NCBI GenBank assembly: GCA_964655075.1
Contig: CAZZLD010000002.1
Location: forward strand, 166,795 to 230,794
DNA length: 64,000 nucleotides
Direction: 5' to 3'
Source of the DNA: an uncultured Candidatus Bathyarchaeia archaeon
Lineage (GTDB): Archaea; Thermoproteota; Bathyarchaeia; Bathyarchaeales; Bathyarchaeaceae
Each line of letters starts with the position of its first letter. The first letter of the stretch is position 1. Shown one piece after another: positions 8,893 to 36,916 of this stretch. The notes beneath the pieces are model-generated. The model was not told where the DNA came from, ran no database searches, and worked only from the letters and a program-made list of their open reading frames with translations. A program made the position numbers and the translations under genes.

Positions 8893-10272
8893 ATGTTGAA
8901 AAAAGCATCGTCCAAAAAAACGGTTGCACTAACGGGCTTAGGCTTTATCTTTCTCGCGATGATGACCACAGCAGCATTAACGACCACAGTAAACGCAGCG
9001 GTTGTTGCCCCAGTTGAGAAGTATGGCTTCGGCGTAGCAATATTCAAGGATGAGGACCCTTGGGGTTATCCGTCTAATGAAATGGTTCTGAAGATGTATG
9101 GCATACCTTACGATGTTTACAACTCGAGCTACATGGGAAACGTGAGCCTTTCAAAATATGCTAAAGTGATAATCGCTTCGGTCCAGACCCAAGACTTTTA
9201 TGACGCGGTGAACGCTTCGAGAGCGTGGTTCGAAGACTACGTGGAAAACGGTGGAGTACTTGAAATTCACGCTGCACACTATACGGGAACAGGGTGGATA
9301 GGTCTACTTCCCGGAGGAATAAACTATACACAATCAACTAGCGATGACGTTGTTATCGCAACGAGAACTCATCCGGTTGTGCGAACGCCGAACAACATTA
9401 CCGACAGCGAACTCGACAATTGGGGTTGGTCTGTTCATGGATATTTCACTTCTTATCCATCGGGCTCTATAACTGTTTTGAGGCTGGGGGTTTCACCATA
9501 TTCTCCAGTGTACCTAGAAGTTCCCTACGGGTCTGGTGTGATAATCGCTTCCTCTCAGACACTCGAATACGCTTATAGATATGAATACAGTTTCATTCTC
9601 GAGAACAGCCTCTTGTACTTGGCTCCCTACGAAAAGCTGGACATCACAGCCAAAGTAGGCACAGTTCATTTCCGAGGCGAAATAGCCGAATTCTACGTTG
9701 AAACCTCGCTATACGGAAACGCCATAAACGCTTCCATATGGGAAGCAGACCTCTACTACGACGGAGGCACAGAGCAAGTAAACTTGACGGCTAATGTTGA
9801 AATCGTCACAGTGGGATTATACAGAATAAGCTATAATATTCCGTCAGACGCGGCGACTGGAACCTACGTCTTGTCAGTTAAGGCAAGCTTCCGAACGGGA
9901 ATGGTAACGGCAACTGGATGCGCAACTGCATCGTTCATAATAAGCCCGACGCTGACCAGCCAAGACGGCTACATAACCGATATAAAAGACGGCATCGCGA
10001 CCATAGTGATTCCGAACTTGGACCCCATTGAAGCAAACCTCACTCAGATAAACGCGAAGGTAACGAGCATAGAAGGCGATACTGCAACCATAGAAACGGA
10101 CATAGGCACGGTGAAAACAAGCGTGGAAAACGTGGGAGACCTGATCAGCGGAATAGACGAAACCACCAAACCCACCTACTGGTTCAGCCTCGCAGCAACG
10201 ATCCTAGCCGCATTAGCAGCGGTAATCGCAGTAGTAATCATAATACTAGTCAAGAGGAAACCAACGCCGTAA
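8893..10272 (+). CDS. secreted, C-terminally anchored surface protein (alpha/beta N-module, FRGE-AEFY Ig-like module, two 28-aa stalk repeats, TM anchor)
   Basis: N-terminal signal/TM LTGLGFIFLAMMTTAALTTTVNA and C-terminal TM WFSLAATILAALAAVIAVVIIILVKRK. Many N-x-S/T sequons. Modules are shared with the 24047..27814 protein. Confidence 0.85.
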   Translation: MLKKASSKKTVALTGLGFIFLAMMTTAALTTTVNAAVVAPVEKYGFGVAIFKDEDPWGYPSNEMVLKMYGIPYDVYNSSYMGNVSLSKYAKVIIASVQTQDFYDAVNASRAWFEDYVENGGVLEIHAAHYTGTGWIGLLPGGINYTQSTSDDVVIATRTHPVVRTPNNITDSELDNWGWSVHGYFTSYPSGSITVLRLGVSPYSPVYLEVPYGSGVIIASSQTLEYAYRYEYSFILENSLLYLAPYEKLDITAKVGTVHFRGEIAEFYVETSLYGNAINASIWEADLYYDGGTEQVNLTANVEIVTVGLYRISYNIPSDAATGTYVLSVKASFRTGMVTATGCATASFIISPTLTSQDGYITDIKDGIATIVIPNLDPIEANLTQINAKVTSIEGDTATIETDIGTVKTSVENVGDLISGIDETTKPTYWFSLAATILAALAAVIAVVIIILVKRKPTP

Positions 10273-14797: not shown

Positions 14798-16123
14798 ATG
14801 GAAAGGAGAGCCGTTTCAGGAATAATGCTAACACTACTGTTTATAGGCATGTTAACGTTCGCATTTAACGTTCAACCAGTTAAAGCGTATTGGATTTGGA
14901 CTGAAACCATTTATATTAGAGCTGATGGGAGCGTTGAGCCCGATGCAACACCTATTTCGAGCGTTGACAATATTACTTACACGTTAACGGACGACATTCT
15001 CGGATACCTTCCAAACGCTTCAAGTGCAGTTGTTGTTGAGAGAGACAACATAATCTTTGATGGGGCAGGCCACATCCTTGCAGGAACAAGAAGCGAAACA
15101 GGAATAGAACTGTCCGATAGAATAAACGTGACAATCAGGAACACTAAAATCACAACTTTCTCGACTGGCATCCGGCTCGAATCCTCTTCAAACAACACCA
15201 TAAGCGGAAACAACATAACAAACAACGTGCAAGAAGGCATCTGGCTCGAATCCTCTTCAAACAACAGCATAGCTGGAAACAGCATAACAAACAACGTCTA
15301 TGATGGCATCCGGCTCTGGTTGTCTTCTGATAACACTATCTCGGGAAACAACATATGTGATGGCATCACCCTCTCTGTGTCTTCTAACAACACTGTTTCT
15401 GGAAACAACATAACAAACAACATATATTATGGCATCTATCTCTATAAGTCTTCAAACAACAAATTTTACCATAACAACTTCATAAACAACACACAGCAGG
15501 TGCACAGGGATGTGGCTGTCTATGATAACTTTTGGGACGATGGTTATCCTTCTGGTGGCAACTATTGGAGCGACTACACAGGCGTAGATAATTATAGCGG
15601 TCCACACCAGAACCAAACAGGCAGCGACTGCATCGGCGACAGACCCTACATCATCGCCAAACCCTACATCATCGATCAACCCATCCAAGACAACTACCCC
15701 CTCATGAACCCATGGATGGTTCCCAACCATCCCACGGCAAACTTTACCTGCTCACCACTCCATCCGTTCATAAACGAAACAGTGACCTTCGACGCATCGA
15801 CCTCAGTGCTTGGCTGGAACGGCACCCACAACGTGCCCATCGCAAATTATACTTGGGACTTCGGCGACGGAACAACCGCCACAACCAACAACCCAGTCAT
15901 CTACCACGCCTACACGGCGGCGGGTACCTACACCGTGAACCTAATCGTCACTGCACCTGACGCCGTGCCAAAAACTCATAGCATACCAAAAACAATAACG
16001 ATAGCAGTGCCTCCGCCTGGGACCGCGATTCCTTGGACATGGATCGCAGTAGGAGTGGTTGTGGCCGTCATCATCATCGCAGCCGCCTACATGTTGACGC
16101 GTAAAAAACAGCATAACAACTAA
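14798..16123 (+). CDS. secreted NosD-like right-handed beta-helix protein with one PKD domain and a C-terminal TM anchor
   Basis: Signal peptide ...FNVQPVKA. PbH1-type repeats (NNTISGNNITNNVQEGIWLESSSNNSIAGNSITNN) and cap motif YHNNFINNTQQV...NYWSDYTG. PKD signature WDFGDGTTA and anchor WIAVGVVVAVIIIAAAYMLTRKK. Confidence 0.9.
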   Translation: MERRAVSGIMLTLLFIGMLTFAFNVQPVKAYWIWTETIYIRADGSVEPDATPISSVDNITYTLTDDILGYLPNASSAVVVERDNIIFDGAGHILAGTRSETGIELSDRINVTIRNTKITTFSTGIRLESSSNNTISGNNITNNVQEGIWLESSSNNSIAGNSITNNVYDGIRLWLSSDNTISGNNICDGITLSVSSNNTVSGNNITNNIYYGIYLYKSSNNKFYHNNFINNTQQVHRDVAVYDNFWDDGYPSGGNYWSDYTGVDNYSGPHQNQTGSDCIGDRPYIIAKPYIIDQPIQDNYPLMNPWMVPNHPTANFTCSPLHPFINETVTFDASTSVLGWNGTHNVPIANYTWDFGDGTTATTNNPVIYHAYTAAGTYTVNLIVTAPDAVPKTHSIPKTITIAVPPPGTAIPWTWIAVGVVVAVIIIAAAYMLTRKKQHNN

Positions 16124-22741: not shown

Positions 22742-23344
22742 TTAAAACCTTCGTCGAAAGGCTGAAACGTACCATCTGGCGAACTTCCTGAAGGCTTTAG
22801 CCCGATGAGAGTGCTCATTCTTCTCTTCGATCGACATCTCCGCAAAAGTTTTACCGTTGCCGCTCAGAGGCTCGAAAATGGGGTCGAAACCGAAGCCTGA
22901 GCTACCGCGCTCTTCTTGAGAAATCCTCCCTTCAGCTTTTCCTTCAAAACACTCCAGAACGCCCTTCAGGTCGCAGTAAGCAACGATAGAGCGGAAATAG
23001 GCGTTTCGCTGGCTGGTGTCCCTCATGAGCTTAAGGACTCCCTTTGTTCCTACGGTTCGGTAAACATATTTGGAGTAAGGACCAGGGAAACCGTCTAACG
23101 CAGGTATGAAGAGCCCAGTGTCTTCCACGATGACTGGCAGCCGAGTTTTTTCAGCGGCTTCTCGGGCGCTGGCTCTGGCAATGTTCTCTATGTCGTCGTC
23201 CTGCAGCTCATCGACTGCAACCCGCAGGAGGGCGGCAGCAATCCCGTATTCGGCAAAAACTAGGCGCGCCTCCCTGAACTTGTGAACGTTACTCGTCACG
23301 AAGAAGGCTACCTTGCCCCTCGTAAAACCTGTTTTAAGCGTCAA
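22742..23344 (-). CDS. non-canonical purine NTP pyrophosphatase (HAM1/RdgB family, XTP/dITPase)
   Basis: FFVTSNVHKFREA, VEDTGLFIPALDGFPGPYS, GFGFDPIFEP and FAEMSIEEKNEHSHRAKAF. Confidence 0.9.
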   Translation of the reverse strand: MTLKTGFTRGKVAFFVTSNVHKFREARLVFAEYGIAAALLRVAVDELQDDDIENIARASAREAAEKTRLPVIVEDTGLFIPALDGFPGPYSKYVYRTVGTKGVLKLMRDTSQRNAYFRSIVAYCDLKGVLECFEGKAEGRISQEERGSSGFGFDPIFEPLSGNGKTFAEMSIEEKNEHSHRAKAFRKFARWYVSAFRRRF

Positions 23345-23499
23345 CCCTCATCTTCTCTTCCTCTTTAAGCGTGCTCCTAAGTAAAATCTTTCGCTCAATG
23401 CAGGTAAGCTGGATATGTAATGCCTTTTTTTAATCTGGATTGTCGGTCGAGAACCCTTAAATTGTTTAACTGTTTAAACTTTCAGAACGCTTAGCCAAG

Positions 23500-23985
23500 T
23501 TGCAGGTTTCATGCATGCTAGGTGAAAGCTTCATCGCCATGATTGTTTCTGCGTTTCTGTCAGCGTCAGGACTGCCCGTAACAGCGAACGGAAACATCAT
23601 TTACGTAGCCTCTCTGGACCACACTTTCATCGTCACGCTGTCATGCACCCAGTGGGTCGGAATATTCCTCGAAACATTCACCTATCTACTTGTAGTTTGG
23701 GTTTACATCTCCGCAAAGGGCATCGTCACCGGAAGGCGAACCTACGTGGCTCTAGGCATAGCCGGTTTTGTCGGCTTCTTCTTCGCGAACATCATGAGAA
23801 TGTTCCTGGAAATTTATCTTTTAGCCAAAGTTTACAGTCCAGCCTATCAGGTTTACCTCCTGAACTGGCAGGCTTTCGAAGAACAAATTGGAATCAGCCT
23901 GATGTTCGCCATGTTCTTTACGTTGCTGTTGTCGTCGTACACTTTGCTCAGAAGGCGAACTGCAAAACTCCCGTTTTTTTACTAG
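23500..23985 (+). CDS. short polytopic membrane protein with exosortase/archaeosortase-family-like layout
   Basis: LSASGLPVTANGNIIYVASLDHTFIVTLSCTQWVG fits the family pattern (G.P....GN.I......V...C.G). About 50 aa later, FANIMRMF fits the N..R motif. 161 aa with about 5 TM helices. The usual downstream His is not evident. TTG start; ATG at 23515. Confidence 0.5.
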   Translation: MQVSCMLGESFIAMIVSAFLSASGLPVTANGNIIYVASLDHTFIVTLSCTQWVGIFLETFTYLLVVWVYISAKGIVTGRRTYVALGIAGFVGFFFANIMRMFLEIYLLAKVYSPAYQVYLLNWQAFEEQIGISLMFAMFFTLLLSSYTLLRRRTAKLPFFY

Positions 23986-24046
23986 CCAACAGCCTTTCCA
24001 AGAAAAGAAGGAGAGACGAGGGAAAGGGAGGCTTCTGCTTTTCAAG

Positions 24047-27000
24047 CTACAATGTGGGTGCCTTTCGTCTTCTGAGAAGCAGAATTACAGCGGCGATGGC
24101 GAAAATCGCGGCTATGGCTGACAGTATCGATCCGACTGGTACGCTGAGTGTAGTTGTTGGTGTAGACGGCAGCTTGTCTTTAACGTCAGCTAGGTCTACT
24201 TTTACGTCGCCTAGGTCCGTCTTAATGGTAACGATGTCTCCTTGAATGTCTTCTATGGTTCCCTCAAGGTCGCCCAAGCTCGTGTTAAGCGTAACTGTTG
24301 TTCCGTTGATGTTTGTCACGGTCAGATTGATGCTGTCGATGCTGGTTTTGATGATGCCTAAATCAGTTTTAATCGTAACAAAGCTGTCCTCAAAGGCGCT
24401 GATCGTGGCATTTATGTCAGATACGCTAACCGTGATCTCGCCCAAGTCTGATTTGATGTTGGCGATTCTGCCCTCGATGGCTATAACCGTGGCATTTATC
24501 AATTCAGCGTCAACTTTGATGGTGCCCAAGTCCGTTTCAATGGTAACTATCTTTCCTTCTATGCTCTGCAGCTTGGCGTTTATACCATCTAGGGATATCT
24601 GAAATGTTGCAATGTCGGTCTCGATCGTGGCTACGTCGCCGTGAATCTCTACTAACCACGCGTTCCAGTTTGTCAAGGTTGAGCTCAGCAAGAAGGCTTT
24701 CATAGATACTCCGTTGAGGCTGAAATAGCCTGCTTCGGCAACGAGCGTGTAAGTGCCAGTGGAAGCATCCAAAGATATGTTGTAGGGCACTCGGTATAGC
24801 CCCGTAGCAACGTGCTCCACGGACGAACTCAAGTCCGCGTGCAAGGCATCGCCGTAATAGAGCAGGGCGCTGATGTTTGCGTTAACGGGCCTTCCGAGAC
24901 ATGAAACTAGGATGTAGAATTCGGCCATCTCACCCCTGAAATGTATGGAACCTACGTCAACCAAGACGTTCAATTCGGTGCGTTCTACAGTAACTGCGGC
25001 TGTGGCGACAGCGGTTAAGCCGTCAGGGTCAGTAACTGTTAAAGTCACATTGTAGTCGCCAGCATAGCCGTACCTGTGATGAACCACAGGGTCTGACACT
25101 GTTGTTATGTTTCCGTCGCCGAAGTCCCAAGTGTAACTAACGATGGTTTCGTCAGGATCGTAGGAGGATGAAGCGTCAAGCGTCACGGGTTCAGTGACAA
25201 AAGGATCATCAGGCGAATAGTTGAAGGAAGCGATGGGATGCACTCCGAAGTGAATGTTCGTGTCAGCCAACATTATGATGTAGTAGTGGTAACTGGATGG
25301 TTTTTCCAAGCTGAACAATAATCCGGAAAGCTTATCGTAGTAGTACGTATATCCGGTGGGTTCCTGATGCAGTTCCCAGCAGTCCACCAGGTAGCCACTG
25401 AAATTTATAATTCGGCTTCCAACCACCGTCGCTACGCCGTTATAAATGTTTATGGTTGAGCCGAGGGTGATGTCGGTCTGTATCCAGCCGATGAACCATG
25501 TGCAATTCCAAAAGCCGCTAACAACCTTCCTGTTCGTGATGTTGACAACCATCCAAACGGCCGGATCAACCTGAGCGGGTTGCCAAGGTATAAATGTATA
25601 CCGAAATGTAACGTTGATCAGGTCAGGCGAAATATAATGGTCATAGGTGAAGTCCCATCCGTCTACAAGATATTTTTGACCAACCCAGACGTCGAAGTAA
25701 TATATCCGATAGTTTGCATACTGTCCCTCAATCGGATGAATTATTGGACGCTTCGGAGGTACAATCGTTATCCCTTTTGACGTGGTATTCCAGAGCCCTT
25801 GGCTGTCTGTGACGTTCAGGACTACGATGTAGGCGCCCTCAAGGGTGTAAGTGTGATAAACGATCGGAACCATGACTGTTGTTGTGTTGCCGTCTCCGAA
25901 ATCCCAAGTGTAACTAACGATGGTTCCGCCTTCGGGTGTTGAAGCTGAGGCGTTAAAAGTCACAGTGCCATTCACGGACGGGTAAGACGGAGAATAAGTA
26001 AAACGAGCCACGGGAGGTACAAGGGGAGAGTAAACCGTTATGTCCTGTGAAACGCTGGCGGACGTTAAGCCCTGAGCAATGAGCACAGGGTCGTCTTCGC
26101 AGGTGACGGTTAGGTTCACGGGATAAGTGGTAATCGCCGTGTAAGTGTGATAAATAATTGGAACCATGACCGTTGTGGTGTTTCCGTCTCCGAAGTCCCA
26201 CCTGTAGGTGGCTATGGGCACGTCGTGGGTGCCGTTCCAACCAGGCAACGAGCCTGAAGCGTCGAAAGTCACAGTTTCACCTGCCTTTGGAGCTAGTGGG
26301 TAGTAGGTGAAGTCAGCCGTAGGACCATAGGGCGGAGAAATAACCACGTAAACATAATATTCCCCAGCGTTATCCTCTACAGCCACGTTGTTAGAAGTGT
26401 CGTAGGCAATGATCTTGTACCACACGGTGGTTGCTGCCGGAAACCCGGGGATACCTCCTTCATAAGTATCCCCAGTTGTCAGGCTCATAGTTACGTTTTC
26501 CCAAGTGGCGCCCGTATCGTTGCTGTAGCTTAATATAACATTTTGAACCGCAACATTGTCAGTTACATTTACTGAAACGGTAACCGCCTGATCAGGCGTC
26601 ACCTCAGTCGGTCCCGGATTCTGCGTGGGAGTGCCAATGATTGGGGGTGTTGCTTCGTAAACTGTTATTTCCTGCCCGGTACTGTTGGACGTTAAGCCTT
26701 GGGCTATGAGCACAGGATCGTCTTGGCATGTTACTGTTAAGTTCACCGTATAGGTACCCTCCGCCGAGTAGGCGTGATAAATTGAGGGGTCAGTAACTAT
26801 TGTTGTGTTTCCGTCGCCAAAATCCCAAGTGTAGTTAGCTATAGGCACGTCGTGGGTGCCGTTGAAACCCGCTAATGACGTTGAAGCGTCGAAAGTTACT
26901 ATGCTGTTCACGCGGGGGCTCGGCGGCGAATACGTGAACTTCGCCTTAGGGGGCGCAGGTGCCGAGTAAACCGTTATGTCCTGTGAAACGCTGGCGGATG

Positions 27001-27814
27001 TTAACCCTTGGGCTATGAGCACAGGATCATCCTTGCATGTAACTGTTAGGTTCACGGTGAAAGTGTCCGCCGCTGTGTAGGCGTGGTAAATGATCGGAGT
27101 GGCAACCGTTGTGGTGTTTCCGTCTCCGAAGTCCCACCTGTAGGTGGCTATGGGCACGTCGTGGGTGCCGTTCCAACCAGGCAACGAACCTGAAGCGTCA
27201 AAGGTGACCGGTTCATTTACCTGTGGGCTAGAGGGTGTGTGCGTTTTTGCAGCCGTGGGACCATACGGCAAGGACAGCTTAAACGTGCCGTTGACCGTGT
27301 TGAATGGAATGGAGTTCTCGTCGAAATCTGTAAGACCCTCCACTGTGAGGTTTAGTAGGCTTTCCCCGTAGGCTTTCACTAGGAAAGAAGCTTGAAGCAG
27401 TGTTCCGCTGCCGTTGACTCCGCCAGTGGTGCTGACGAGCGCGTATGGCGGATATACTTCTCCTGCAGTGTTGTTTATAGCACCTGCGACCGTTAAGCCT
27501 GTGATAAAGGTAGTGTTATAGTCGAAGGCTGTGCATTCCAAGACTGTTGGATTCCATTTCATGCCGATGGAGTAACCAGCCAAATCGATGACGTTTTCGA
27601 TGTTTATGTAAATTTTAAAGGTGCCACCGACATCGGGTGGTGGACCAACTATTTTCTGTGGAGATACGCTGACAGTGGCAACGCTTTGGGTAACGGGTCT
27701 GCCGATAACAGTTATGGGAAAAACGAGAAACATAGATATTATTAAGTAAACACAAACCTTTTTGTGCTTCAACCTTTCCCTCATCTCTCTAATCTCTCTA
27801 TTGGGGAAACTCAT
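24047..27814 (-). CDS. giant (1255 aa) anchored surface protein: cohesin-like domain, at least 5 PKD domains, Ig/FN3-like module, uncharacterised beta-rich domain, FRGE-AEFY module, six 28-aa stalk repeats, TM anchor
   Basis: N-terminal TM/signal VCVYLIISMFLVFPITVIG. Cohesin-like FKIYINIENVIDLAGYSIGMKWNPTVLE. Repeated WDFGDGNTT PKD signatures. C-terminal SILSAIAAIFAIAAVILLLRRRK. Confidence 0.92.
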   Translation of the reverse strand: MSFPNREIREMRERLKHKKVCVYLIISMFLVFPITVIGRPVTQSVATVSVSPQKIVGPPPDVGGTFKIYINIENVIDLAGYSIGMKWNPTVLECTAFDYNTTFITGLTVAGAINNTAGEVYPPYALVSTTGGVNGSGTLLQASFLVKAYGESLLNLTVEGLTDFDENSIPFNTVNGTFKLSLPYGPTAAKTHTPSSPQVNEPVTFDASGSLPGWNGTHDVPIATYRWDFGDGNTTTVATPIIYHAYTAADTFTVNLTVTCKDDPVLIAQGLTSASVSQDITVYSAPAPPKAKFTYSPPSPRVNSIVTFDASTSLAGFNGTHDVPIANYTWDFGDGNTTIVTDPSIYHAYSAEGTYTVNLTVTCQDDPVLIAQGLTSNSTGQEITVYEATPPIIGTPTQNPGPTEVTPDQAVTVSVNVTDNVAVQNVILSYSNDTGATWENVTMSLTTGDTYEGGIPGFPAATTVWYKIIAYDTSNNVAVEDNAGEYYVYVVISPPYGPTADFTYYPLAPKAGETVTFDASGSLPGWNGTHDVPIATYRWDFGDGNTTTVMVPIIYHTYTAITTYPVNLTVTCEDDPVLIAQGLTSASVSQDITVYSPLVPPVARFTYSPSYPSVNGTVTFNASASTPEGGTIVSYTWDFGDGNTTTVMVPIVYHTYTLEGAYIVVLNVTDSQGLWNTTSKGITIVPPKRPIIHPIEGQYANYRIYYFDVWVGQKYLVDGWDFTYDHYISPDLINVTFRYTFIPWQPAQVDPAVWMVVNITNRKVVSGFWNCTWFIGWIQTDITLGSTINIYNGVATVVGSRIINFSGYLVDCWELHQEPTGYTYYYDKLSGLLFSLEKPSSYHYYIIMLADTNIHFGVHPIASFNYSPDDPFVTEPVTLDASSSYDPDETIVSYTWDFGDGNITTVSDPVVHHRYGYAGDYNVTLTVTDPDGLTAVATAAVTVERTELNVLVDVGSIHFRGEMAEFYILVSCLGRPVNANISALLYYGDALHADLSSSVEHVATGLYRVPYNISLDASTGTYTLVAEAGYFSLNGVSMKAFLLSSTLTNWNAWLVEIHGDVATIETDIATFQISLDGINAKLQSIEGKIVTIETDLGTIKVDAELINATVIAIEGRIANIKSDLGEITVSVSDINATISAFEDSFVTIKTDLGIIKTSIDSINLTVTNINGTTVTLNTSLGDLEGTIEDIQGDIVTIKTDLGDVKVDLADVKDKLPSTPTTTLSVPVGSILSAIAAIFAIAAVILLLRRRKAPTL
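24173..24655 (-). repeat. tandem 84-bp (28-aa) coding repeats, about 6 units (one shortened)
   Basis: The units are LVEIHGDVATIETDIATFQISLDGINAK, LQSIEGKIVTIETDLGTIKVDAELINAT, VIAIEGRIANIKSDLGEITVSVSDINAT, ISAFEDSFVTIKTDLGIIKTSIDSINLT, VTNINGTTVTLNTSLGDLEGT and IEDIQGDIVTIKTDLGDVKVDLADVKDK. Confidence 0.85.
26030..26263 (-). repeat. intragenic PKD-cassette repeat, copy 1
   Basis: Offset exactly 936 nt (312 codons) from 26966..27199. The flanking about 90 nt (cgttgtggtgtttccgtctccgaagtcccacctgtaggtggctatgggcacgtcgtgggtgccgttccaaccaggcaacga.cctgaagcgtc) differ at a single position by eye; the centre is more diverged. Confidence 0.85.
26966..27199 (-). repeat. intragenic PKD-cassette repeat, copy 2
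   Basis: See 26030..26263. Confidence 0.85.
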
Positions 27815-27985
27815 TATAATGCTTTCTGTAACTAAAACCCAGACTTTTCCTATTGTCTCTTAAATTTCGACCTTTACACCTATAGGCTGAAACTGGAGGC
27901 ATCTCTCCATGATCCTCTTTTTATTTTTGAACGTGCAAAAACTTTTTGTATGTTGTTTGTCTATTTATCATCGAGGGGTTAGTTA

Positions 27986-30712
27986 ATGAGAGATAAAGTG
28001 ATCTTTCTCGTTCTATTGCTTGTTTCGTCAACTCTAGCTGTTGGATCGTTTTTGTTGCCTGCGAAAAGGGTAGTTGCACAGCAGTCGATAAAAGATTGGT
28101 GGAATCCAGACTGGGGCAGCCGCAGAGTAGTGGTCATCAACGAAACTGCTGGATTGAACCGCGTAAACGAGCCTACAGATGTCGAAATAGCATTTGATCC
28201 GGGAAAATGCCTTGACCCAGTCAAGGAAGTTAGGGTGGTCCAATTTGACGGATCAGCTTGGACCGAGGTGCCCAGCCAAGTGTACAACGTGACGATGGCG
28301 GGTGGCTACGCCCAGTCAGCAAACGTTGTCTTCCTAGCCAACGTGTCAGCCTACAGCTCAACTACATACCAGATCTACTACAACGCTGCTGTTGAAGCGC
28401 CAACATACGATGGACTCCGCCTTCACACAGAAATAGCAGGTGACACCTACAACGTCACCGCTGTCAAAGACGGCGTAGAAAAGATTTATTTCCGCATATA
28501 CTGGAAACACGCTATTACTCTCTATAGCGACGGGAAGAACATTACCTTGTCTGGAGGCCAGCCTGGCTGGGAGCTGTTCACCATAAGTTTTGCTAACCTT
28601 TGGACAGACGCGGATGACGCCGCTTGGTTCTCGTGCAGGATAGGTGAGACGTTAAAAGTCACGAACTCGGGTCCTATATTTGTTGACTTCGAAAACACTC
28701 AACCGATCGCTTCGGACCTCTGGGGTTCAGTTTTTAACTCGAACATCTCGAGTATATATCGGCTAAGGGTTTATTATCAACCAGACTTGAATCCGCTGGT
28801 AAGATACTGCATGAGCTTGACTTGGAAAAATGTCGAAACAGTGAATAACATATTATTCATGGACTTTAAGCTCGCCAACGACACAAGCACTCAGGTTTCA
28901 CCGGGGGTCTGGGAAGAGGGCAGCTACGCGATCTACAAGGACTTCACGTGGAAAAACACAGACGGTGTTGTTCAGACGGTGCCTGTGGAAACAACTGTTA
29001 CAGACCTGATCTGGAATCCAGCGAACCCAGTGGGCTGGTGGAGTTATAACGGCAACCGCTCCGATTCAACCATGAAGCCTGGAGCAGATATCGGCATGAT
29101 CCCAACCTACACTGGAGGAACCATATCTGGCTCCGACTACACCATAGAAATTACACAACAAATCGAATACAACGACAACCATGCATCACCATACGTCAAA
29201 GGAACCTACGGCGGAAATACAAGTGATACGGTTGAAACTATAGGATACCTCGTCGTTAACACGCCGACAGACCAGAACGTAGCACCCACCATGGAAGACG
29301 AAGCCACGAAACTACGTAACCCCCTTGAACATGGACGCTTGCCCGTTTATAACGTCAATACCGGATTAGACTATGCCACAATCCAAGGAGCCATAGACGC
29401 TAATGAAACTCTGGATGGAAACACAATCCTAGTGAGTGCCGGAACATATTATGAAAACGTAGTCGTGAACAAGTCTGTGTCGCTTGTTGGAGAAAACAAA
29501 AGCACCACCATAATAGATGGCAACATGACTGGCACTACTGTTTACGTGACTGCGAGCAACGTTGAAATCACCGAATTCACAATACGAAACGGTATTGCGC
29601 TTAGGTCCGGCTTTTGGGCTGGTGTCTGGATATCCTTCTCAGAGAATAACACAATCAGCGGCAACGTATTTTCAAGTAACTTTTGTGACATCTTCCTAAA
29701 CCATTCAAGCGGCAACACAATCAGCGGAAATACCATGGCATACGGCATTTACCTAAGGAATTCCAATGATAACGCGATTAGCGGTAACGAACTGAATGAA
29801 GCTTTTAGCGGAGACCTCACCGGTATTTCCCTAATAGATTCTTCTAGCAACACGATCATTGGTAACACTGTCTTGAATTTTTGGGTTGCTGGCATTTCAG
29901 TGGGAGGGGAAAGGAACATTATTAGTGAAAACACCATTTCAAATAGCGAACATGGGCTTCAGATTCAGGGGGGAGCAGGGAATAACAAAGTCGTTGACAA
30001 CACGATATCAGATAATTACAACAGTATTGAACTGTATAACACGGGTGCGGGCAACACTTTTTATCATAACAACATCATCAACAGCAAAGTACCGATACTT
30101 AGTAGTGGAACACCAGTATCATGGAACACTTGGGATAATGGTGCTGAGGGAAACTATTGGAGCGATTATAATGGTACAGACACAAATGGCGATGGCATTG
30201 GAGACACGCTTCTGCCTCATCTGGGGGTGGATTCGTATCCTCTAATGGGAATGTATTCTGACTTTGCTGTAGAATACCAAGCACAGACAGAGCACGTTAC
30301 CACCATCTGCAATTCTACAATTTCAGATTTCCAATGTTACTATGATTCAGAAATACAAAGTAACGTGTTGAGGTTTAATGTCTCAGGGGCAGAGGGCACC
30401 ACAGGATTTTGCAGAATTACCATTCCCCATGCATTGGTTGCACCTGGATACAACGTCACAATCAACAACGGTTCACCAATTCAAAGTAAAGTGTTATCTT
30501 CCGATACTACGCAAACAACACTATACTTCACATACCATCACACAACAAAACAAGTCAAAATAACAATACCAGAGTTCCCATCAGCTCTAATCTTACTTCT
30601 ACTAATGGCTGTCACTTTAGTTGCAGTTCTTGTGGAGAAGCTGGTCAATTTTAAAAAAGAGCAACGTAAGCCTACTAACTATGAAGGGATATCCGCTTGT
30701 TATAAACTCTAA
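27986..30712 (+). CDS. 908-aa secreted beta-helix (NosD/pectate-lyase-like) surface protein with a PEF-CTERM-like anchor
   Basis: Signal VIFLVLLLVSSTLAVG. N-terminal W..W..RR.V.I motif (DUF2341-like). PbH1 repeats (NNTISGNVFSSN..., GNTISGNTMAYGIYLRNSNDNAISGN), YHNNIINS cap and NYWSDYNGTDTNGDGIGD. C-terminus ...IPEFPSALILLLLMAVTLVAVLVEKLVNFKK. Confidence 0.9.
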   Translation: MRDKVIFLVLLLVSSTLAVGSFLLPAKRVVAQQSIKDWWNPDWGSRRVVVINETAGLNRVNEPTDVEIAFDPGKCLDPVKEVRVVQFDGSAWTEVPSQVYNVTMAGGYAQSANVVFLANVSAYSSTTYQIYYNAAVEAPTYDGLRLHTEIAGDTYNVTAVKDGVEKIYFRIYWKHAITLYSDGKNITLSGGQPGWELFTISFANLWTDADDAAWFSCRIGETLKVTNSGPIFVDFENTQPIASDLWGSVFNSNISSIYRLRVYYQPDLNPLVRYCMSLTWKNVETVNNILFMDFKLANDTSTQVSPGVWEEGSYAIYKDFTWKNTDGVVQTVPVETTVTDLIWNPANPVGWWSYNGNRSDSTMKPGADIGMIPTYTGGTISGSDYTIEITQQIEYNDNHASPYVKGTYGGNTSDTVETIGYLVVNTPTDQNVAPTMEDEATKLRNPLEHGRLPVYNVNTGLDYATIQGAIDANETLDGNTILVSAGTYYENVVVNKSVSLVGENKSTTIIDGNMTGTTVYVTASNVEITEFTIRNGIALRSGFWAGVWISFSENNTISGNVFSSNFCDIFLNHSSGNTISGNTMAYGIYLRNSNDNAISGNELNEAFSGDLTGISLIDSSSNTIIGNTVLNFWVAGISVGGERNIISENTISNSEHGLQIQGGAGNNKVVDNTISDNYNSIELYNTGAGNTFYHNNIINSKVPILSSGTPVSWNTWDNGAEGNYWSDYNGTDTNGDGIGDTLLPHLGVDSYPLMGMYSDFAVEYQAQTEHVTTICNSTISDFQCYYDSEIQSNVLRFNVSGAEGTTGFCRITIPHALVAPGYNVTINNGSPIQSKVLSSDTTQTTLYFTYHHTTKQVKITIPEFPSALILLLLMAVTLVAVLVEKLVNFKKEQRKPTNYEGISACYKL

Positions 30713-30792
30713 CCTAACAGTACGGAGGAACGGCCGCTAAGGCTGACATTGGCTCAGTTACCCTGTGGGTTGATACAGACGCAGTTCGTGTG

Positions 30793-31614
30793 TTAACCAA
30801 GCCTCTGGTTGCTAAGATATGATCTCCTTCTTCTTAGTATCTCCTGGACAAGAAGGACAACCGCAACGATAACACCGATCAGGATCATAGACCCCCTAAG
30901 AAGCACACCTACGTCTAGTGATGTTGCTACGCCAATGAAACCCGTTGCGTCGTATACCCCATGAATTATTGCGGGTACAAGAAGATTCCCCCCAGAGAGA
31001 TAATACGTAGCTGCCATAGCCATTCCAAAGGTCACCAAGTCGGTGAATTGAACCAAGGAGACTATTCCGTATACAAGGGCGTAATAGAGGTGTGCAGCAG
31101 CAAACAATATTGACGAAATGAAAGCAAGACTGAGCCAGTGGTGACCCTTGAAAAGATTCAGCAAACCGCCATAAATGAAGCCTCTAAAGAGATACTCTTC
31201 AACTGGCCCCACAACCAGCAAAGAGACCCACACCATTATCCAAGCTAGTTCAGGCTTTATGTTAAGCACAGGGTTAGGCCTGTTTATAAGGCTAACAGCG
31301 GTGGGATCAAACATTATTATGATGTAGAAAATCGCAGTAGCCACAAGCGTGCCCAAAACTGTAAAGACGCCGAAGAAGCCTAATCCGAACTTTACAGCAG
31401 TGTACGTTTGACTGAAGGCCCTTCGGACTATTTCTGACCCCCAAAGCAAGCCCGTAGCCAACAGCGGCACTCCATAAACAATAAAGGTCCCTAAGATTGG
31501 ACCAAAGCCTCCGATGAGATACTGGGAGTACGCTGAGGCAAAGATTATGACCAGACCAACAAGATAGAGTCTCTTTGTAAGAGGCATTTCACTTTCTATT
31601 TTTCTTATGCGCAT
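30793..31614 (-). CDS. CPBP-family (CAAX protease/Abi) intramembrane glutamic endopeptidase
   Basis: Motif 1 GPVEEYLFRGFIYGG (EExxxR), motif 2 FISSILFAAAHLY (FxxxH) and motif 3 PAIIHGVYD (HxxxD/N). About 8 TM helices. Confidence 0.85.
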   Translation of the reverse strand: MRIRKIESEMPLTKRLYLVGLVIIFASAYSQYLIGGFGPILGTFIVYGVPLLATGLLWGSEIVRRAFSQTYTAVKFGLGFFGVFTVLGTLVATAIFYIIIMFDPTAVSLINRPNPVLNIKPELAWIMVWVSLLVVGPVEEYLFRGFIYGGLLNLFKGHHWLSLAFISSILFAAAHLYYALVYGIVSLVQFTDLVTFGMAMAATYYLSGGNLLVPAIIHGVYDATGFIGVATSLDVGVLLRGSMILIGVIVAVVLLVQEILRRRRSYLSNQRLG

Positions 31615-31723
31615 TCATTTAAGGTTTTCTTCCTTAGAGAAAGAATCGGTTCGTGTTGAATAGCCTTATATCTCCAGAAAGATAAAGAATTGTTGTGTCA
31701 TAAAATGAGTTGGAGGTGAAAAA

Positions 31724-31873
31724 ATGGCGAAGAAGAAGGGGACAAAATATGAATGTGGAGAATGTGGACTTGTTGTGGTAGTTGACGAACCCTGTGGGTG
31801 TGCTGCATGTGAATTAGTATGTTGTGAGGTTCCAATGAAAGAAGTGAAACCGAAAGCCAAGAAGCGAACTTAG
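31724..31873 (+). CDS. desulforedoxin-like Cys-rich small protein (49 aa)
   Basis: Manual translation gives MAKKKGTKYECGECGLVVVVDEPCGCAACELVCCEVPMKEVKPKAKKRT. The Y.C..CG.VV.V...(n)..LVCC...M pattern matches the Fe(Cys)4 desulforedoxin/Dfx N-domain. A strong SD (ggaggtga) lies at 31713..31720. It is absent from the track because it is under 60 aa. Confidence 0.65.
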   Translation: MAKKKGTKYECGECGLVVVVDEPCGCAACELVCCEVPMKEVKPKAKKRT

Positions 31874-32119
31874 AAAATACGCGTACATTGTTTTCTAGGA
31901 AAAGTCTGCAACGAAAATTCAATATTGGCTCCATTTTCTTTCCCAGGTTCTTTTGTGATAGCAAGAGTATTTCAACCTTAAATCCTAACGTTGTTTTGAT
32001 TAGTGGCAGCCTACACATTCATCATTTTGATCCATTTCATTCAACAAATAAGAAGGACACGCCAGATTTGACCGGGCGAAAATACCCTTTAAACCTATAA
32101 AGTACCTTGAATTCAATAC

Positions 32120-35100
32120 ATGCTTATATGCTTCAAAAGGGAACCGACTAGGCAGAAGGTTAAGATCGTGAAGCAGGCTAAAGCTCTCCTCATGCTTTTC
32201 ATTGTATTCGAAATGGTTTTTCCGCCCATCTCCGCTCTCGGTTACGCACACACATACGAGGCTGCCGACTCTTCTGACCTTAAAGACGCAAAGTCGGTTT
32301 CGCCTTTCTCCTCCATCGGCGGAAACTGGAACTTCAGCAGGGTAGCGGAGTGGGGCAACTTTGCTTGTGTTGACAACGACTCGGCTGAGCTTGTAGTGGG
32401 CATTAACAACACGAGGTCGGAAAACTACGCTGAGCTGGTGAACCTCACCACCGAAAAAGGCGGCACAATCGTCAATAAGGTTTCATTGGGAGGAAAACCC
32501 GAAGCGGTTGTTGTTGACTTGCCCTTAGACGAGGTTTCCCCCTTCGCGGATGAAGTACAACAAGCCAACCTAGCGCGGTATGTTGAGCCTAACATGAAGC
32601 TTCACGTTGATTTTGTTCCGAACGACCCTGAGTGGACCAAACAGTGGGGTCCTAAAAAGATTGAGGCTGACTATGCGTGGAATACAACAACCGGCAACAG
32701 CTCCATTCTGGTGGCTGTCATCGACACGGGTGTCGACTATAACCATCCTGACTTGAATGATAACTATAATTCGTCGGGCTATGACTGGGTGAACAACGAC
32801 TCAGACCCTATGGATGACAACAGCCACGGCACCCACTGCGCGGGAATCATAGCCGCTGAAATCAACAACAGCATAGGCGTAGCGGGACTAGCCCAAGTCC
32901 GCTTCATGGCTGAAAAAGCCTTCAACCAGTCTGGAGGCGGCTTGGAAGACGACGTAGCAAACGCTATCATCCACGCTGTAGATCAAGGAGCAGACATCCT
33001 GAGCAACAGTTGGGGCGACTACGAAGAAAGCCAACTTATCCGCAACGCTATAGATTACGCTTACGCCAATGGATTGCTGATAATCGCAGCGGCTGGAAAC
33101 GAGGATACAAGCAGTAAGCTGTATCCTGCGGCATATGACGAGGTTATCGCCGTCACGGCAACCGACAGCTCTGACACCAAGGCTTCATTCAGCAACTACG
33201 GTAACTGGGTGGAGCTTGCAGCGCCCGGCGTCAACATTTACTCAACTATTCCAGTCTCCCGTGGTTCCTACGGCAATAAGAGCGGAACCTCAATGGCGTG
33301 TCCGTACGTTACCGGCGTCGCCGCGTTGATCTGGAGCAAGTTTCCGAACGTGACGCGGGACTGGGTGCGGGCTCAGTTGCGGTACACCTCAGACGATCTA
33401 GGCGCCTCTGGCTTTGATCAGTATTACGGATATGGAAGGGTCAACGCGCGTAGGGCGGTTGAAGAGGCTCCTCCTAGTCACGACCTTCTCATTATACATT
33501 CTAAGATTTCTTCAGCGGTTGAACTCGGAGAAAACATAACCGCCGACGTTACGGTGTTTAACTTTGGATTTGAGGATGAAAATAATGTCACGGCGCAGTT
33601 TTTGATTAACGGCACCACAGTTGACTCCGTTGATGTTGGTTTTCTGGCTAGCGGCACATCGACAACAGTCAGCTGTTCGTGGACTCCAAGGACGAAGGGA
33701 ACGTACAACGTCACAGCGTATGTTTTGCCGGTTCTCGGCGAGAACAACACCGCAAACAACCTAGTGAGCAGTATGGTTCGCGTTCGCTATGTTGAAGTAG
33801 CTCTGATATCGGATTGGACTGAGCTTTCGGTTCTGACACCCACGCTGGACTCCATGGGCATCGACTATGACACGTACAATTACAACGAGATTTACTTCTA
33901 CACGGCAAACTCCAGCCTGCTGCTCAGTTATCCGGCGGTAATTTTCTACAAGTCCGCGTCTTACTATAGGCTCTTGACCCCCCGCGAATATTCAACTCTG
34001 AACACCTATCTAACTCACGGCGGAAGCCTTCTGGTCACAGGTTTAGATTCTCTATACAGCGACGCGCTTCTAGCCGACATAGTCCGTTCATCCTCTTACG
34101 GCGACGACATGAACGAAACAGATTTGTTTGTGGTAAACGCCTCACATCCGATAATGAACGGTTCATACGGCAGCTTCTCCGCTGGCTACAACATTTCAGG
34201 ATTATTCAGCGACTGCGACGCGGTTAAAGCAGACACTACGCGGAACGCTGTGACTGTGGCTGAACTAGCTGACGGATACGACAAAATCATAGCTACGGAG
34301 CTTCATCCTGGGAAAGTTGTTTTCTGGAACGGTGACGGAACCTCAGATTGGACAACGAACAACGACTGTAAGACCATGTTCAAAAACACTCTAGCTTGGT
34401 TCCTAACCCGCTATGAACATGAACTGGTTGTTTCTCTGGGTGCGCCTAACTACGTTGAACCCGGCGTCGCCGTGTTTCTTAATGCGACAGTTTACAACCG
34501 AGGGTTAAACAACGAAACCGTGGACCTGTTCCTGCTGATCAACGGTACAGTTGTGAACTCCACAACACTCCCTAACATGATGAACGGAACCTCCCGCACG
34601 CTGAGCCACCTGTGGATGCCGACGAATTTGGCAGCATACAACGTGACCGTCCACGCTTTACCTGTGTCTGGGGAAAGCTTCACGACTAATAACGTCTACT
34701 CGGCTTACGTCGTCTCGCGCATGCCCCTTATAAGCCCAAAACCAGGGGACTACGCACACTATATTTTCAGAAAGTTCGCCTCGACAACCAACGACACAGT
34801 AGTGGAGACCTACCTGTGGAACTTCACCTACCTTGAATACGTAGAACTCCACGTGATGAACGTCACAATTGATGTAACCGCTTTAGACGCGGAGGGGAAC
34901 CACGTTACCACCACCTCCTATTGGATGAACGTGGATACTATGACCCGTTGGGTTGAAACTGGAGACGCAGGGTGGGAGGGCACATACTACGTTGGGTGGG
35001 TGGAGACAGGCATCGGCTTCGGGTCTGAAATTAACTTGTGGACCGGAACCGGAACAGTCATGGGAACCAGCAACTTCACCGTCGATGGGAGAAACTTCAA

Positions 35101-36451
35101 CACGTGGCTAATAACGATCTTCAAAGATCCAAACGCCAACAATTATTATGATCAGTCCAGCGGGCTTCTGGTAGCCTTCGATGAAAAGTCTGTTTCATCG
35201 GATTATCACAGCAACTTGACGCTCTTAGAAACAAACATCGACGTCACCCCTCCAACCGTTCATGTTACAAGCCCAGTTCAAGGCGCCGCGGTAGCAAGCA
35301 CTAACGTTACCGTGAATTGGACAGGCGAGGACAATGAAACAGGAATCGACCATTACTCGGTTTATTTGAATGAAACGTTGGTCGGCAACACCACAGCCAA
35401 CTCCTACAATGTTTCAAGTCTCACTGAAGGATGGAACAACATAACTGTAGTAGCCTACGACAAGGCGGGAAACAACGCCAGCGACCGAATAAGCATATTC
35501 GTGGACCTCAACCCGCCCAACGTAGAAATTATCTCTCCCCATAACGGTTATGCAATAAACGTGGGCAATGTAACGGTGGAGTGGATCGGAAGCGACAACG
35601 AAACGGAAATCGCCCATTATCTGGTTTACCTTGACAACGTCCAAGTCGCAAACACAACTAACACGGTACACACGCTCACCGACCTTATCGAAGGCCACCA
35701 CACCATAAAGATTGAAGCCTACGATCGGGCTGGAAACATGCAAAGCGACGAAATCACAGTGATCGTGGATATGACGGTCCCCGAGCTGAGCGTGATCAGC
35801 CCTGAAAACGGCTCCTTCGTCTCTGACCACGTGACCGTGCAGTTTTTCGTCTTCGACGCCAACCTTCACAACGTAACGTATCAGATCAACAACAGCACCC
35901 CTATAGGCGTTACAGGCGAAACAAACTTCACAGTTTACACTGCGTTGTTCTCGGACGGCGCGTTCAACATCACCATAATCGTCATGGACAAAGCCCTGAA
36001 CGCAGTGAACCAAACTTTAACGTTAATTGCGGACAACACTGCGCCAGCAGTTTCCATCTTCTCTCCGCGGCAGGGCGCTGAACTGCTCGGAACAGCGACC
36101 ATAAATTTCTCGGCTTCAGACGCCAACTTGAAAGAAGTTCACTTGTATATAGACGGCGCTGAAGTCAACATAACCGGAACAACGGTTTACAGTTGGGACA
36201 CGGCAACCGCTGGAGACGGCGTCCACACCATACGGCTTGTAGCCATAGACAAGGCAGGCAACGCCGCCGAAGCCACCGTAACAGTAATCACTGCCAACCT
36301 GAGACGCACAGTTGAGGACACCCGAAACTTCTTCTTCATGCTCGGAACCGTTGCAGGAGTAATTATAGGCGCTCTAATGGTCTACTTCGCGAGAAGACAG
36401 AAACCCTCAACCCAGAAAGGATCGCCTAGGCGCCAGTTTATACTATTTTAA
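32120..36451 (+). CDS. 1443-aa anchored subtilisin-like (S8) serine protease with a multi-domain C-terminal extension
   Basis: Catalytic triad AVIDTGVDYNHPDL (Asp), HGTHCAGIIAA (His) and SGTSMACPYVTGVAAL (Ser). I9-like propeptide, two CARDB-like modules, an alpha/beta module, an uncharacterised domain, four Ig-like repeats of about 88 aa (35238..36295), and TM anchor FFMLGTVAGVIIGALMVYFARRQK. The true start may be the GTG near 32168. Confidence 0.92.
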   Translation: MLICFKREPTRQKVKIVKQAKALLMLFIVFEMVFPPISALGYAHTYEAADSSDLKDAKSVSPFSSIGGNWNFSRVAEWGNFACVDNDSAELVVGINNTRSENYAELVNLTTEKGGTIVNKVSLGGKPEAVVVDLPLDEVSPFADEVQQANLARYVEPNMKLHVDFVPNDPEWTKQWGPKKIEADYAWNTTTGNSSILVAVIDTGVDYNHPDLNDNYNSSGYDWVNNDSDPMDDNSHGTHCAGIIAAEINNSIGVAGLAQVRFMAEKAFNQSGGGLEDDVANAIIHAVDQGADILSNSWGDYEESQLIRNAIDYAYANGLLIIAAAGNEDTSSKLYPAAYDEVIAVTATDSSDTKASFSNYGNWVELAAPGVNIYSTIPVSRGSYGNKSGTSMACPYVTGVAALIWSKFPNVTRDWVRAQLRYTSDDLGASGFDQYYGYGRVNARRAVEEAPPSHDLLIIHSKISSAVELGENITADVTVFNFGFEDENNVTAQFLINGTTVDSVDVGFLASGTSTTVSCSWTPRTKGTYNVTAYVLPVLGENNTANNLVSSMVRVRYVEVALISDWTELSVLTPTLDSMGIDYDTYNYNEIYFYTANSSLLLSYPAVIFYKSASYYRLLTPREYSTLNTYLTHGGSLLVTGLDSLYSDALLADIVRSSSYGDDMNETDLFVVNASHPIMNGSYGSFSAGYNISGLFSDCDAVKADTTRNAVTVAELADGYDKIIATELHPGKVVFWNGDGTSDWTTNNDCKTMFKNTLAWFLTRYEHELVVSLGAPNYVEPGVAVFLNATVYNRGLNNETVDLFLLINGTVVNSTTLPNMMNGTSRTLSHLWMPTNLAAYNVTVHALPVSGESFTTNNVYSAYVVSRMPLISPKPGDYAHYIFRKFASTTNDTVVETYLWNFTYLEYVELHVMNVTIDVTALDAEGNHVTTTSYWMNVDTMTRWVETGDAGWEGTYYVGWVETGIGFGSEINLWTGTGTVMGTSNFTVDGRNFNTWLITIFKDPNANNYYDQSSGLLVAFDEKSVSSDYHSNLTLLETNIDVTPPTVHVTSPVQGAAVASTNVTVNWTGEDNETGIDHYSVYLNETLVGNTTANSYNVSSLTEGWNNITVVAYDKAGNNASDRISIFVDLNPPNVEIISPHNGYAINVGNVTVEWIGSDNETEIAHYLVYLDNVQVANTTNTVHTLTDLIEGHHTIKIEAYDRAGNMQSDEITVIVDMTVPELSVISPENGSFVSDHVTVQFFVFDANLHNVTYQINNSTPIGVTGETNFTVYTALFSDGAFNITIIVMDKALNAVNQTLTLIADNTAPAVSIFSPRQGAELLGTATINFSASDANLKEVHLYIDGAEVNITGTTVYSWDTATAGDGVHTIRLVAIDKAGNAAEATVTVITANLRRTVEDTRNFFFMLGTVAGVIIGALMVYFARRQKPSTQKGSPRRQFILF

Positions 36452-36475: not shown

Positions 36476-36916
36476 TTAGTATTTGACAGTGAGATATAGC
36501 AGTACGGCTAATGCTACGCATGTAAATAAGTCTGGCAACATGGCAAAAGGTCCAAGACCGAATGCATGGAAGCCAAAAATCCAAGGCACCAAAGGATTGG
36601 AGACGAGAGCATAGAGAAGCAAGACCATTGAAAATATTATCAATCCAATTGTGAATTCTGAATGTGTCTTTCTGTATATGTCAATGTATGTGATCAACAA
36701 GAAGATCAAAAGTGTCGCATTGATTGTGGTAACTACAGTCTTAATTGTGTAGAATAACTCTATGTCCCCAGGAACTCTAGTAGGAGGCCACGTTCTATTT
36801 TCGAATGGAGGAGTTGGCACCTGTGTAATGGCTAAGAAAGCTGACAGCAGAGCCACAGCTACCAACGCTGCCAGTATTAGCCAGATTTTCATGTCTTTGT
36901 TCATATGATCGTTCAT
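36476..36916 (-). CDS. hypothetical 4-TM membrane protein
   Basis: 146 aa with four hydrophobic helices. Its start overlaps the stop of the upstream ArsR-like gene by 4 nt, implying an operon. Confidence 0.7.
   Translation of the reverse strand: MNDHMNKDMKIWLILAALVAVALLSAFLAITQVPTPPFENRTWPPTRVPGDIELFYTIKTVVTTINATLLIFLLITYIDIYRKTHSEFTIGLIIFSMVLLLYALVSNPLVPWIFGFHAFGLGPFAMLPDLFTCVALAVLLYLTVKY

Follow-up and report, generated by a model that had tools for sequence, protein, structure and literature searches.

The closest described counterpart of the locus considered here is the ArtA/PGF-CTERM system (Haloferax volcanii, HVO_0915), in which a polytopic membrane protein with a conserved cysteine and arginine is matched to a major surface (S-layer-type) protein whose C-terminus carries a Thr-rich linker, a motif abutting a transmembrane (TM) helix and a basic cluster. 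ArtA mutagenesis implicates Cys173, Arg214 and Arg253, and Haft describes a nearly invariant Cys/Arg/His triad in the exosortase/archaeosortase family. Here we analyze a 64,000-nucleotide stretch of DNA from an uncultured Candidatus Bathyarchaeia archaeon (contig CAZZLD010000002.1, positions 166,795 to 230,794; the window hereafter), in which the gene for a 156-amino-acid (aa) membrane protein with four TM helices converges on the gene for a 1255-aa secreted PKD-domain protein. We propose that the two are an enzyme and its cargo, and probably a new dedicated sorting pair in Bathyarchaeota-type archaea.

By analogy, the system would work like ArtA and PGF-CTERM, since the small protein is also polytopic with a conserved Cys and Arg, and its candidate cargo is a surface protein that ends in the same succession of linker, abutting motif, helix and basic cluster. 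It differs from ArtA in being roughly half as long (156 aa), in conserving Glu122 and in having nothing that corresponds to Arg253 or to the His of the family; the cargo tail, which we call tail-A, differs from PGF-CTERM in carrying no PGF, and the enzyme and substrate genes are adjacent here. In size the nearest families would be ArtE and ArtF, which belong to a class of short curated models: ArtE (TIGR04124, 153 profile positions), ArtF (TIGR04293, 166), pacearchaeosortase (NF033505, 167), XrtK (163) and heimdallarchaeosortase (NF045528, 199). An earlier note on this DNA was aware of no characterised system that joins a very short sortase homologue to a CPBP protease beside the cargo; any claim that so short a homologue is in itself without precedent is wrong, given ArtE, ArtF, pacearchaeosortase and XrtK. 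The small protein is of the same size class as these families, and members of its own family match them weakly and co-linearly, for example positions 41-153 of ArtF to residues 9-140, but some 40 N-terminal positions of ArtF are lacking, the scores are 13-29 bits where the cut-offs are 80-150, and tail-A falls outside the curated signals.

Distant homology of the small protein to exosortases and archaeosortases

The gene for the mini archaeosortase-like protein runs from 23515 to 23985 on the forward strand when read from its ATG, the start also used for an identical protein (P0001) in public gene calls, and we number residues from that methionine; the open reading frame (ORF) reaches back to a TTG at 23500, which would give 161 aa. 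The earlier note had described four ORFs here (the small protein, the 1255-aa protein, a 908-aa protein and a CPBP protease), and we recovered all four with the same coordinates, strands and lengths. The gene context is archaeal, with a DHH/RecJ-type protein, ribosomal protein S15 and HAM1 encoded upstream of the small gene, the last at a distance of 155 base pairs (bp). We considered whether the 161-aa ORF might derive from a longer archaeosortase, as a fragment or a pseudogene, and rejected this because its length is kept across the family, HAM1 lies only those 155 bp away and the predicted fold is confident.

Profile searches repeatedly pointed to the superfamily, with scores below its thresholds. 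The window protein matched PF09721 (Exosortase_EpsH) at 18.2 bits (E = 0.0017, cut-off 25.7) over profile positions 129-249 of 254, and had no match in NCBIfam. When 13 members were scanned singly, six matched PF09721 (best E = 5.9e-6), nine matched TIGR04178, the 97-position exosortase/archaeosortase domain model (best 22.9 bits for P0005, against a cut-off of 23), and six matched ArtF, while the heimdallarchaeosortase model matched P0009 at 29 bits (E = 9.3e-7). Ten members of a sister clade behaved likewise, reaching at most 24.0 bits with PF09721 (L017; cut-off 25.7) and 20.4 bits with ArtF. The matches are co-linear, TIGR04178 positions 1-90 aligning with residues 38-140, and P0005 is annotated as 'exosortase/archaeosortase family protein' in one source. 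From these repeated co-linear, sub-threshold matches across the family we accept distant homology, so that the small protein is supported, at the level of sequence, as a distant homologue within the exosortase/archaeosortase superfamily.

The specific subfamily models were missed by far wider margins, with best scores (cut-offs in brackets) of 20.4 bits for ArtF (150), 13.9 for ArtE (95), 29 for heimdallarchaeosortase (130), 12.3 for pacearchaeosortase (80), 15.1 for ArtH (200) and 11.8 for XrtK (55), and among the NCBIfam models ArtC showed no similarity to the small-protein family. As no curated threshold is passed, the small protein lies outside every curated subfamily. The archaeosortase-like label of the earlier note therefore survives as distant superfamily homology and fails as assignment to any curated model. 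The family is also rare: when 1.84 billion representative proteins were searched exhaustively with HMMER, 12 matched at E ≤ 0.001, 10 of them 151-199 aa long, a metagenome scan added 42 further loci, and a profile scan of genome contigs found a single locus, in a Candidatus Bathyarchaeota metagenome-assembled genome (MAG; L006), the only named genome with a relative. Neither the exhaustive hidden Markov model (HMM) search nor a profile word search at E ≤ 10 reached a named canonical archaeosortase, and a profile search of Protein Data Bank (PDB) sequences with the family gave only noise. We conclude that this is a rare subfamily absent from the curated libraries.

Conserved residues and predicted fold

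Conservation was counted over 52 unique sequences, and the conserved positions are Cys44 (47/52), Asn92 (51/52), Arg95 (50/52, the other two being Lys), Glu99 (48/52), Trp118 (47/52), Glu122 (47/52) and Gly126 (51/52). Cys44 aligns near the start of the TIGR04178 match and supplies the superfamily cysteine (Cys173 of ArtA), and Arg95, which lies within an N..R motif, supplies the superfamily arginine (Arg214 of ArtA). With the Cys and Arg present and the third residue absent, the family retains two of the three hallmark residues, and the sequence pattern makes it conceivable that Glu122 stands in place of the third. Cys44 is missing from five sequences, and these five and no others have Met at position 122, a joint loss which suggests that Cys44 and Glu122 work together, although the five may represent one evolutionary event. 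In two of these Cys-less members (L059, 1612-2079; L060, 1943-2530) a downstream zinc-ribbon membrane protein overlaps.

Four TM helices are predicted both by a hydropathy count and by an AlphaFold2 (AF2) model computed from a 13-sequence alignment (predicted local distance difference test, pLDDT, 87.9; predicted template modelling score, pTM, 0.79). The model consists of TM1 (residues 2-17), a three-stranded sheet (22-39), a short helix bearing Cys44, TM2 (47-68), TM3 (74-106) bearing Arg95, and TM4 (118-150) with Glu122 at its start. The positive-inside rule assigns the basic loop (69-77) and the RRR tail to the cytoplasmic side, which would leave Cys44, Arg95 and Glu122 outside, at the extracytoplasmic ends of TM2, TM3 and TM4. 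A Foldseek comparison of the AF2 model with the PDB returned nothing (best E = 0.88).

Tail-A and its conserved pairing with the small gene

The probable cargo gene occupies 24047-27814 on the reverse strand and ends 61 bp from the small gene, on which it converges. Its 1255-aa product is secreted and contains five PKD domains (Pfam, 234 bits), a long coiled-coil region and a C-terminal stalk module, and terminates in '...SILSAIAAIFAIAAVILLLRRRKAPTL', a TM helix followed by RRRK; Pfam detected no cohesin domain at E ≤ 1, and we have dropped the 'cohesin' label given to it earlier. The candidate sorting signal, tail-A, comprises the last 42 aa (24050-24175, reverse strand; 'KLPSTPTTTLSVPVGSILSAIAAIFAIAAVILLLRRRKAPTL') and is laid out as a Thr-rich linker, a motif '(L/V)G(I/V)(P/S)xA(S/A)(I/V)L(S/A)AIAAIA' that abuts the hydrophobic helix, and then RR(L)K. 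Sister-clade tails follow the consensus 'TT(L/M)G(I/V)x(I/L)A(A/T)VLSAIAAIAAIxAVVVV(R/K)RLKVAA-COOH'. The 'VLSAIAAIA' block has the highest mean pairwise identity (0.56) in the last 255 aligned columns, other blocks ranging from 0.20 to 0.44. Among the features that Haft lists for signals cut by membrane-embedded sorting enzymes are a linker rich in Thr and a motif set directly against the helix, with no spacer between them. Curated sorting-signal models, including PGF-, Loki-, Heimdall-, PEF- and PEFG-CTERM and others, did not match tail-A, all scoring 15 bits or less.

An HMM of tail-A, built from the last 42 residues of nine relatives, was searched against all six-frame ORFs of the window and of the related loci. 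This relatives-only model matched the tail of the window PKD protein at 61.4 bits (E = 6e-18) and found a matching C-terminus beside nearly every family member. Among the 46 non-identical loci with flanks, 32 carry a tail-A gene, which in 31 lies no more than 1 kilobase (kb) away, so that the co-occurrence of enzyme and signal that marks the superfamily is present here at the level of neighborhood; most of the remaining 14 have insufficient downstream sequence on the contig. The pairing is retained from 84% down to about 26% identity. A convergent gene with the same type of tail accompanies the small gene in the 84% relatives (L002-L004), a 56% relative (L001), the Bathyarchaeota MAG and L010; the proteins encoded range from 393 to 1460 aa and differ in their head domains, and the 1460-aa gene of L002-L004 is orthologous to the window 1255-aa gene. 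Even in the Cys-less clade (L059, L060) the pairing is kept, with the cargo upstream on the same strand. The 1255-aa PKD protein is thus very probably the cargo of the small protein, as the earlier note had proposed.

In the sister clade the pairing persists although a gene for a four-TM protein of about 130 aa stands between the sortase-like and cargo genes. This protein, '...GYFLLLPAPISGIxGIxISK', is encoded in L027 (10492-10923), L031 (1363-1800), L046 (687-1271) and about 20 other loci, matches nothing in Pfam or NCBIfam, and could be an accessory subunit. A copy of it in the window was sought by HMM search and rejected, none being found.

Two further loci bear on the range of cargos. L003 encodes a second tail-A cargo (5378-9733; 1451 aa, CARDB/PKD/glucodextranase-like) between HAM1 and the sortase-like gene, whereas the corresponding window interval, 23327-23446, holds none, which implies that the complement of cargos near the enzyme turns over quickly. 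Beside P0009, the most heimdallarchaeosortase-like member, L007 encodes (777-1448) a secreted protein of 223 aa that contains haem motifs of the CxxCH type, ends in a TM tail of another kind and may represent an alternative class of substrate. Within the window, the tail-A HMM also gave a weak match (E = 2.3e-4) to the C-terminus of a 459-aa secreted protein (8893-10272, forward strand) that has the same Ig-like domain as the PKD protein, a coiled-coil stalk and an Ala-rich TM tail, '...ATILAALAAVIAVVIIILVKRKPTP', and matched none of the other TM-anchored proteins of the window; on its sequence the 459-aa protein is possibly a second substrate.

Upstream of the tail the cargos share a module in which an Ig-like domain ('VGSIHFRGEMAEFYILVS...') is combined with coiled-coil repeats of the pattern 'I.TDLG.IK'. 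A 393-aa protein in L001, the minimal cargo, has SlaB (NF040788) as its best NCBIfam match (36.3 bits, E = 3e-9), far under the equivalog cut-off of 700. Its matches among PDB sequences are trimeric coiled-coil fibres and also chain 8qox_B (E = 0.003), which may be SlaB of S. acidocaldarius. As in SlaB, the cargo C-terminal module combines a beta-sandwich domain, a long coiled coil and a single C-terminal TM helix; unlike in SlaB, it is fused to varied heads (PKD, CARDB, Ig-like, TIG) and paired with a sortase-like gene. Sulfolobales have no archaeosortases, and SlaB retains its TM helix. The resemblance is architectural and is not family membership.

The CPBP and PEF-tailed genes lie on a separate cassette

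The earlier note had placed two more genes in the same system: that of a surface protein of 908 aa, a beta-helix protein of the NosD type whose tail is PEF-like (27986-30712, forward strand; NosD/beta-helix, 111 bits), viewed as a second cargo, and that of a 273-aa CPBP (Rce1-like) intramembrane glutamic protease (30793-31614, reverse strand), viewed as bracketing the locus. Comparison with the DNA of the 84% relative L003 showed collinearity on both sides and a 4.2-kb segment of the window, 27885-32085, that has no counterpart there, the flanks meeting at about position 15000 of L003. Both genes lie within this segment. At its two edges stand the copies of an imperfect direct repeat of 14 bp, CCTTTAMACCTATA, at 27871-27884 (CCTTTACACCTATA) and 32086-32099 (CCTTTAAACCTATA), both on the forward strand and identical at 13 of 14 positions. 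Within the window the repeat pattern occurs at these two places only, where chance would give 0.01 matches, and the 84% relative carries one similar copy, CCTTCACACCTATA, a single base off the searched pattern, and no segment. The missing counterpart and the repeats at the edges identify the beta-helix/PEF and CPBP genes as a separate cassette, which looks to have been inserted in the window or deleted in the relative, by target duplication or by recombination between the repeats.

CPBP homologues and PEF tails are missing from all of the roughly 50 related loci, so that of the proposed neighborhood the small gene and its tail-A cargo recur and the CPBP and PEF genes do not; neither the bracketing protease nor the second cargo of the earlier note could be upheld. 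The protease scores 56.3 bits with PF02517 (cut-off 22.4) and has EEYLFR, FAAAH and HGVYD in the places of EExxxR, FxxxH and HxxxD; it is thus a true CPBP member, as identified earlier, and its family is large, with more than 413 clusters at E ≤ 1e-10. Orthologues at 81, 78, 73 and 64% identity adjoin an M50-CBS protease, phosphoglucomutase, pyrophosphatase, OsmC or a P-type ATPase, and none of them adjoins a large surface protein. In L053-L055 and L058 CPBP orthologues repeatedly adjoin an M50 (site-2 protease-like) CBS-domain peptidase, and the two may form a conserved membrane-protease pair. In belonging to the CPBP family the window protein resembles the myxosortase-type enzymes (MrtX, MrtC, MrtP, MrtJ, MrtA), but it scores far under the Mrt cut-offs (MrtP 23 against 250 bits, MrtJ 21.8 against 75, Mrt core 19.5 against 100) and its adjacency to a cargo is not conserved. 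According to Haft, CPBP-processed signals all share an invariant motif Cys, and this Cys is absent from the PEF motif of the neighboring 908-aa protein.

That protein reads '...KITIPEFPSALILLLLMAVTLVAVLV' / '...IPEFPSALILLLLMAVTLVAVLV' in its C-terminal region, with 26 residues, including KKEQRK, beyond the helix. By eye, a PEF(P) motif and a helix can be made out in this tail and in that of a 368-aa protein (51134-52240), but neither reaches the TIGR03024 (PEF-CTERM) cut-off of 23 bits, scoring 10.8 and 17.3, respectively. The literature pairs PEF-CTERM with the archaeosortase ArtC, and the 64-kb window encodes no ArtC-like protein. A second, canonical archaeosortase in the window was also considered and rejected, the other polytopic proteins being an M48 peptidase, an FtsX permease, the CPBP protease and a 146-aa protein.

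Other genes of the window

The window contains four NosD-type beta-helix surface proteins, at 14798-16123 (forward), 27986-30712 (forward), 51134-52240 (reverse) and 52502-53887 (reverse). Two of them carry PEF(P)-type tails ('VVPEFPTWTSILPILIV...YKRK' and 'IPEFPSALILLLL...'), and the remaining two have different TM tails containing P/W; because no signal peptide was seen, the 51134 ORF may be N-terminally truncated. To the right of the cassette, a 1443-aa S8 subtilase (32120-36451, forward) contains CARDB and Big_7 domains and is anchored by a C-terminal TM helix. The relatives have it in syntenic position, and neither tail-A nor PEF matches its tail. The 146-aa protein (36476-36916, reverse), with about four predicted TM helices, is encoded convergently with this S8 protease gene, has no Pfam match and is not found at the corresponding position in the 84% relative.

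Discussion

We favor, as on balance probable, the reading in which the small protein belongs to the exosortase/archaeosortase superfamily as a minimal member with four helices, genetically tied to SlaB-like stalk proteins with tail-A as a dedicated sorting pair. This reading rests on distant homology, residue conservation, the fold and topology as predicted, conservation of the tail and the gene pairing. From these, by analogy with described systems, we infer that the family is a new subfamily of archaeosortases and tail-A its cognate C-terminal signal, likewise new, together with catalysis, a cleavage site, lipid attachment and a role for Glu122. In the mechanism that we envisage the cargo, namely the 1255-aa PKD protein and possibly the 459-aa protein, would be exported and retained by its C-terminal helix, the conserved first half of which would be recognized by the mini-sortase in the outer leaflet. 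Cys44, Arg95 and Glu122 would then cleave the tail and, if the analogy with ArtA holds, the helix would be removed and the protein left on a lipid anchor.

Several observations weigh against this reading. No member tested reaches the curated cut-offs of PF09721 or TIGR04178, and the third catalytic residue of the superfamily is missing, with no conserved His in the 52 sequences, no conserved His or Arg downstream of Arg95 and no counterpart of ArtA Arg253, so that any equivalence of Glu122 with the His is hypothetical. The literature yielded no solved exosortase structure with which the predicted fold could be compared. The genes are convergent in most loci, which means that the pair is not co-transcribed there, and a tail-A gene is absent despite sufficient room in L007, L008, L009, L040 and perhaps L037. 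Lastly, the Cys-less subclade, which has W, I or L at position 44 and Met at 122 and may be a pseudo-enzyme, retains its tail-A cargo neighbor, and the association is therefore not strictly dependent on the putative nucleophile.

The last of these points, with the missing His or third basic residue, underlies the main rival, in which the small protein is a non-catalytic archaeosortase descendant (a pseudo-enzyme, receptor or chaperone) that binds or positions the TM tail of the stalk protein without cleavage, and for which the Ala-rich 'AIAAIA' helix could serve as a helix-packing interface. We regard this as unlikely, since Cys44, Asn92, Arg95 and Glu122 are each found in 47-51 of the 52 sequences and the Cys and Glu are lost jointly, which is the pattern expected of an active site and makes the Cys-less clade, lacking both residues, a derived exception. 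It is quite improbable that the two genes have no functional link at all, their adjacency being inherited synteny in one lineage and the tail being kept for the TM bundle of a trimeric stalk. All the loci probably do belong to one archaeal lineage, their genes are mostly convergent and Ala-rich TM helices pack well, but the pairing persists over 26-100% identity despite changes in surroundings, cargo heads, orientation and the intervening gene.

Less probable still is the single self-contained locus of the earlier note, in which the PKD giant and the PEF-tailed beta-helix protein are both processed by mini-sortase and CPBP protease acting together. In its favor, the window has the four genes side by side, the CPBP and PEF-tailed genes share one cassette, and CPBP proteases are known to sort some C-terminal signals; this model is nevertheless largely refuted by the non-conserved neighborhood. 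The 84% relative does not have the cassette, about 50 related loci contain neither a CPBP gene nor a PEF tail, the CPBP family is far commoner than the sortase-like one and has its orthologues in housekeeping contexts, the Mrt scores fall far under the cut-offs, and the PEF motif is without the invariant Cys. The least probable of the alternatives makes the mini-sortase the PEF-CTERM enzyme for the tails encoded at 27986-30712 and 51134-52240, with the tail-A adjacency incidental. It would account for two PEF-like tails in a window with no other archaeosortase candidate, and it draws on the pairing of PEF-CTERM with an archaeosortase (ArtC) in the literature, but no related locus has a PEF tail whereas tail-A is nearly always adjacent, the small protein has no similarity to ArtC, the tails score under the TIGR03024 cut-off, and a canonical archaeosortase may lie outside the 64 kb.

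Taking the favored reading, that of a dedicated sorting pair, to its full extent, we tentatively picture a Bathyarchaeota-type archaeosortase with four helices and a Cys/Arg/Glu set, smaller than any curated subfamily it matches and without the canonical third residue, which would be dedicated to one or two adjacent substrates and would turn SlaB-like stalks from TM-anchored into lipid-anchored proteins by way of an undescribed signal ('...VLSAIAAIA...RRLKVAA'), while a Cys-less sister clade would have turned the enzyme into a non-catalytic receptor of the tail. In this extended form we hold the proposal to be possible, with slightly less than even confidence. The concept stays inside the established exosortase/archaeosortase framework, and what is new in it is the subfamily, the cognate signal and the apparently altered catalytic set. 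The CPBP 'bracket' also serves as a caution that adjacency in a single genome can be an artefact of insertion.

Bathyarchaeota are abundant and largely uncultured. Our literature search found nothing on how they build or anchor their cell envelope, and nothing on heimdallarchaeosortase, pacearchaeosortase or the S-layers of Bathyarchaeia. A 156-aa enzyme candidate beside a substrate with a 40-aa tail makes a compact and very tractable pair for heterologous tests of archaeosortase chemistry, and a family with a Glu at the expected third catalytic position and one clade without the Cys offers a natural experiment on which archaeosortase residues are essential. The new sorting-signal model, in turn, could be used to annotate the surface proteins of Bathyarchaeota genomes.

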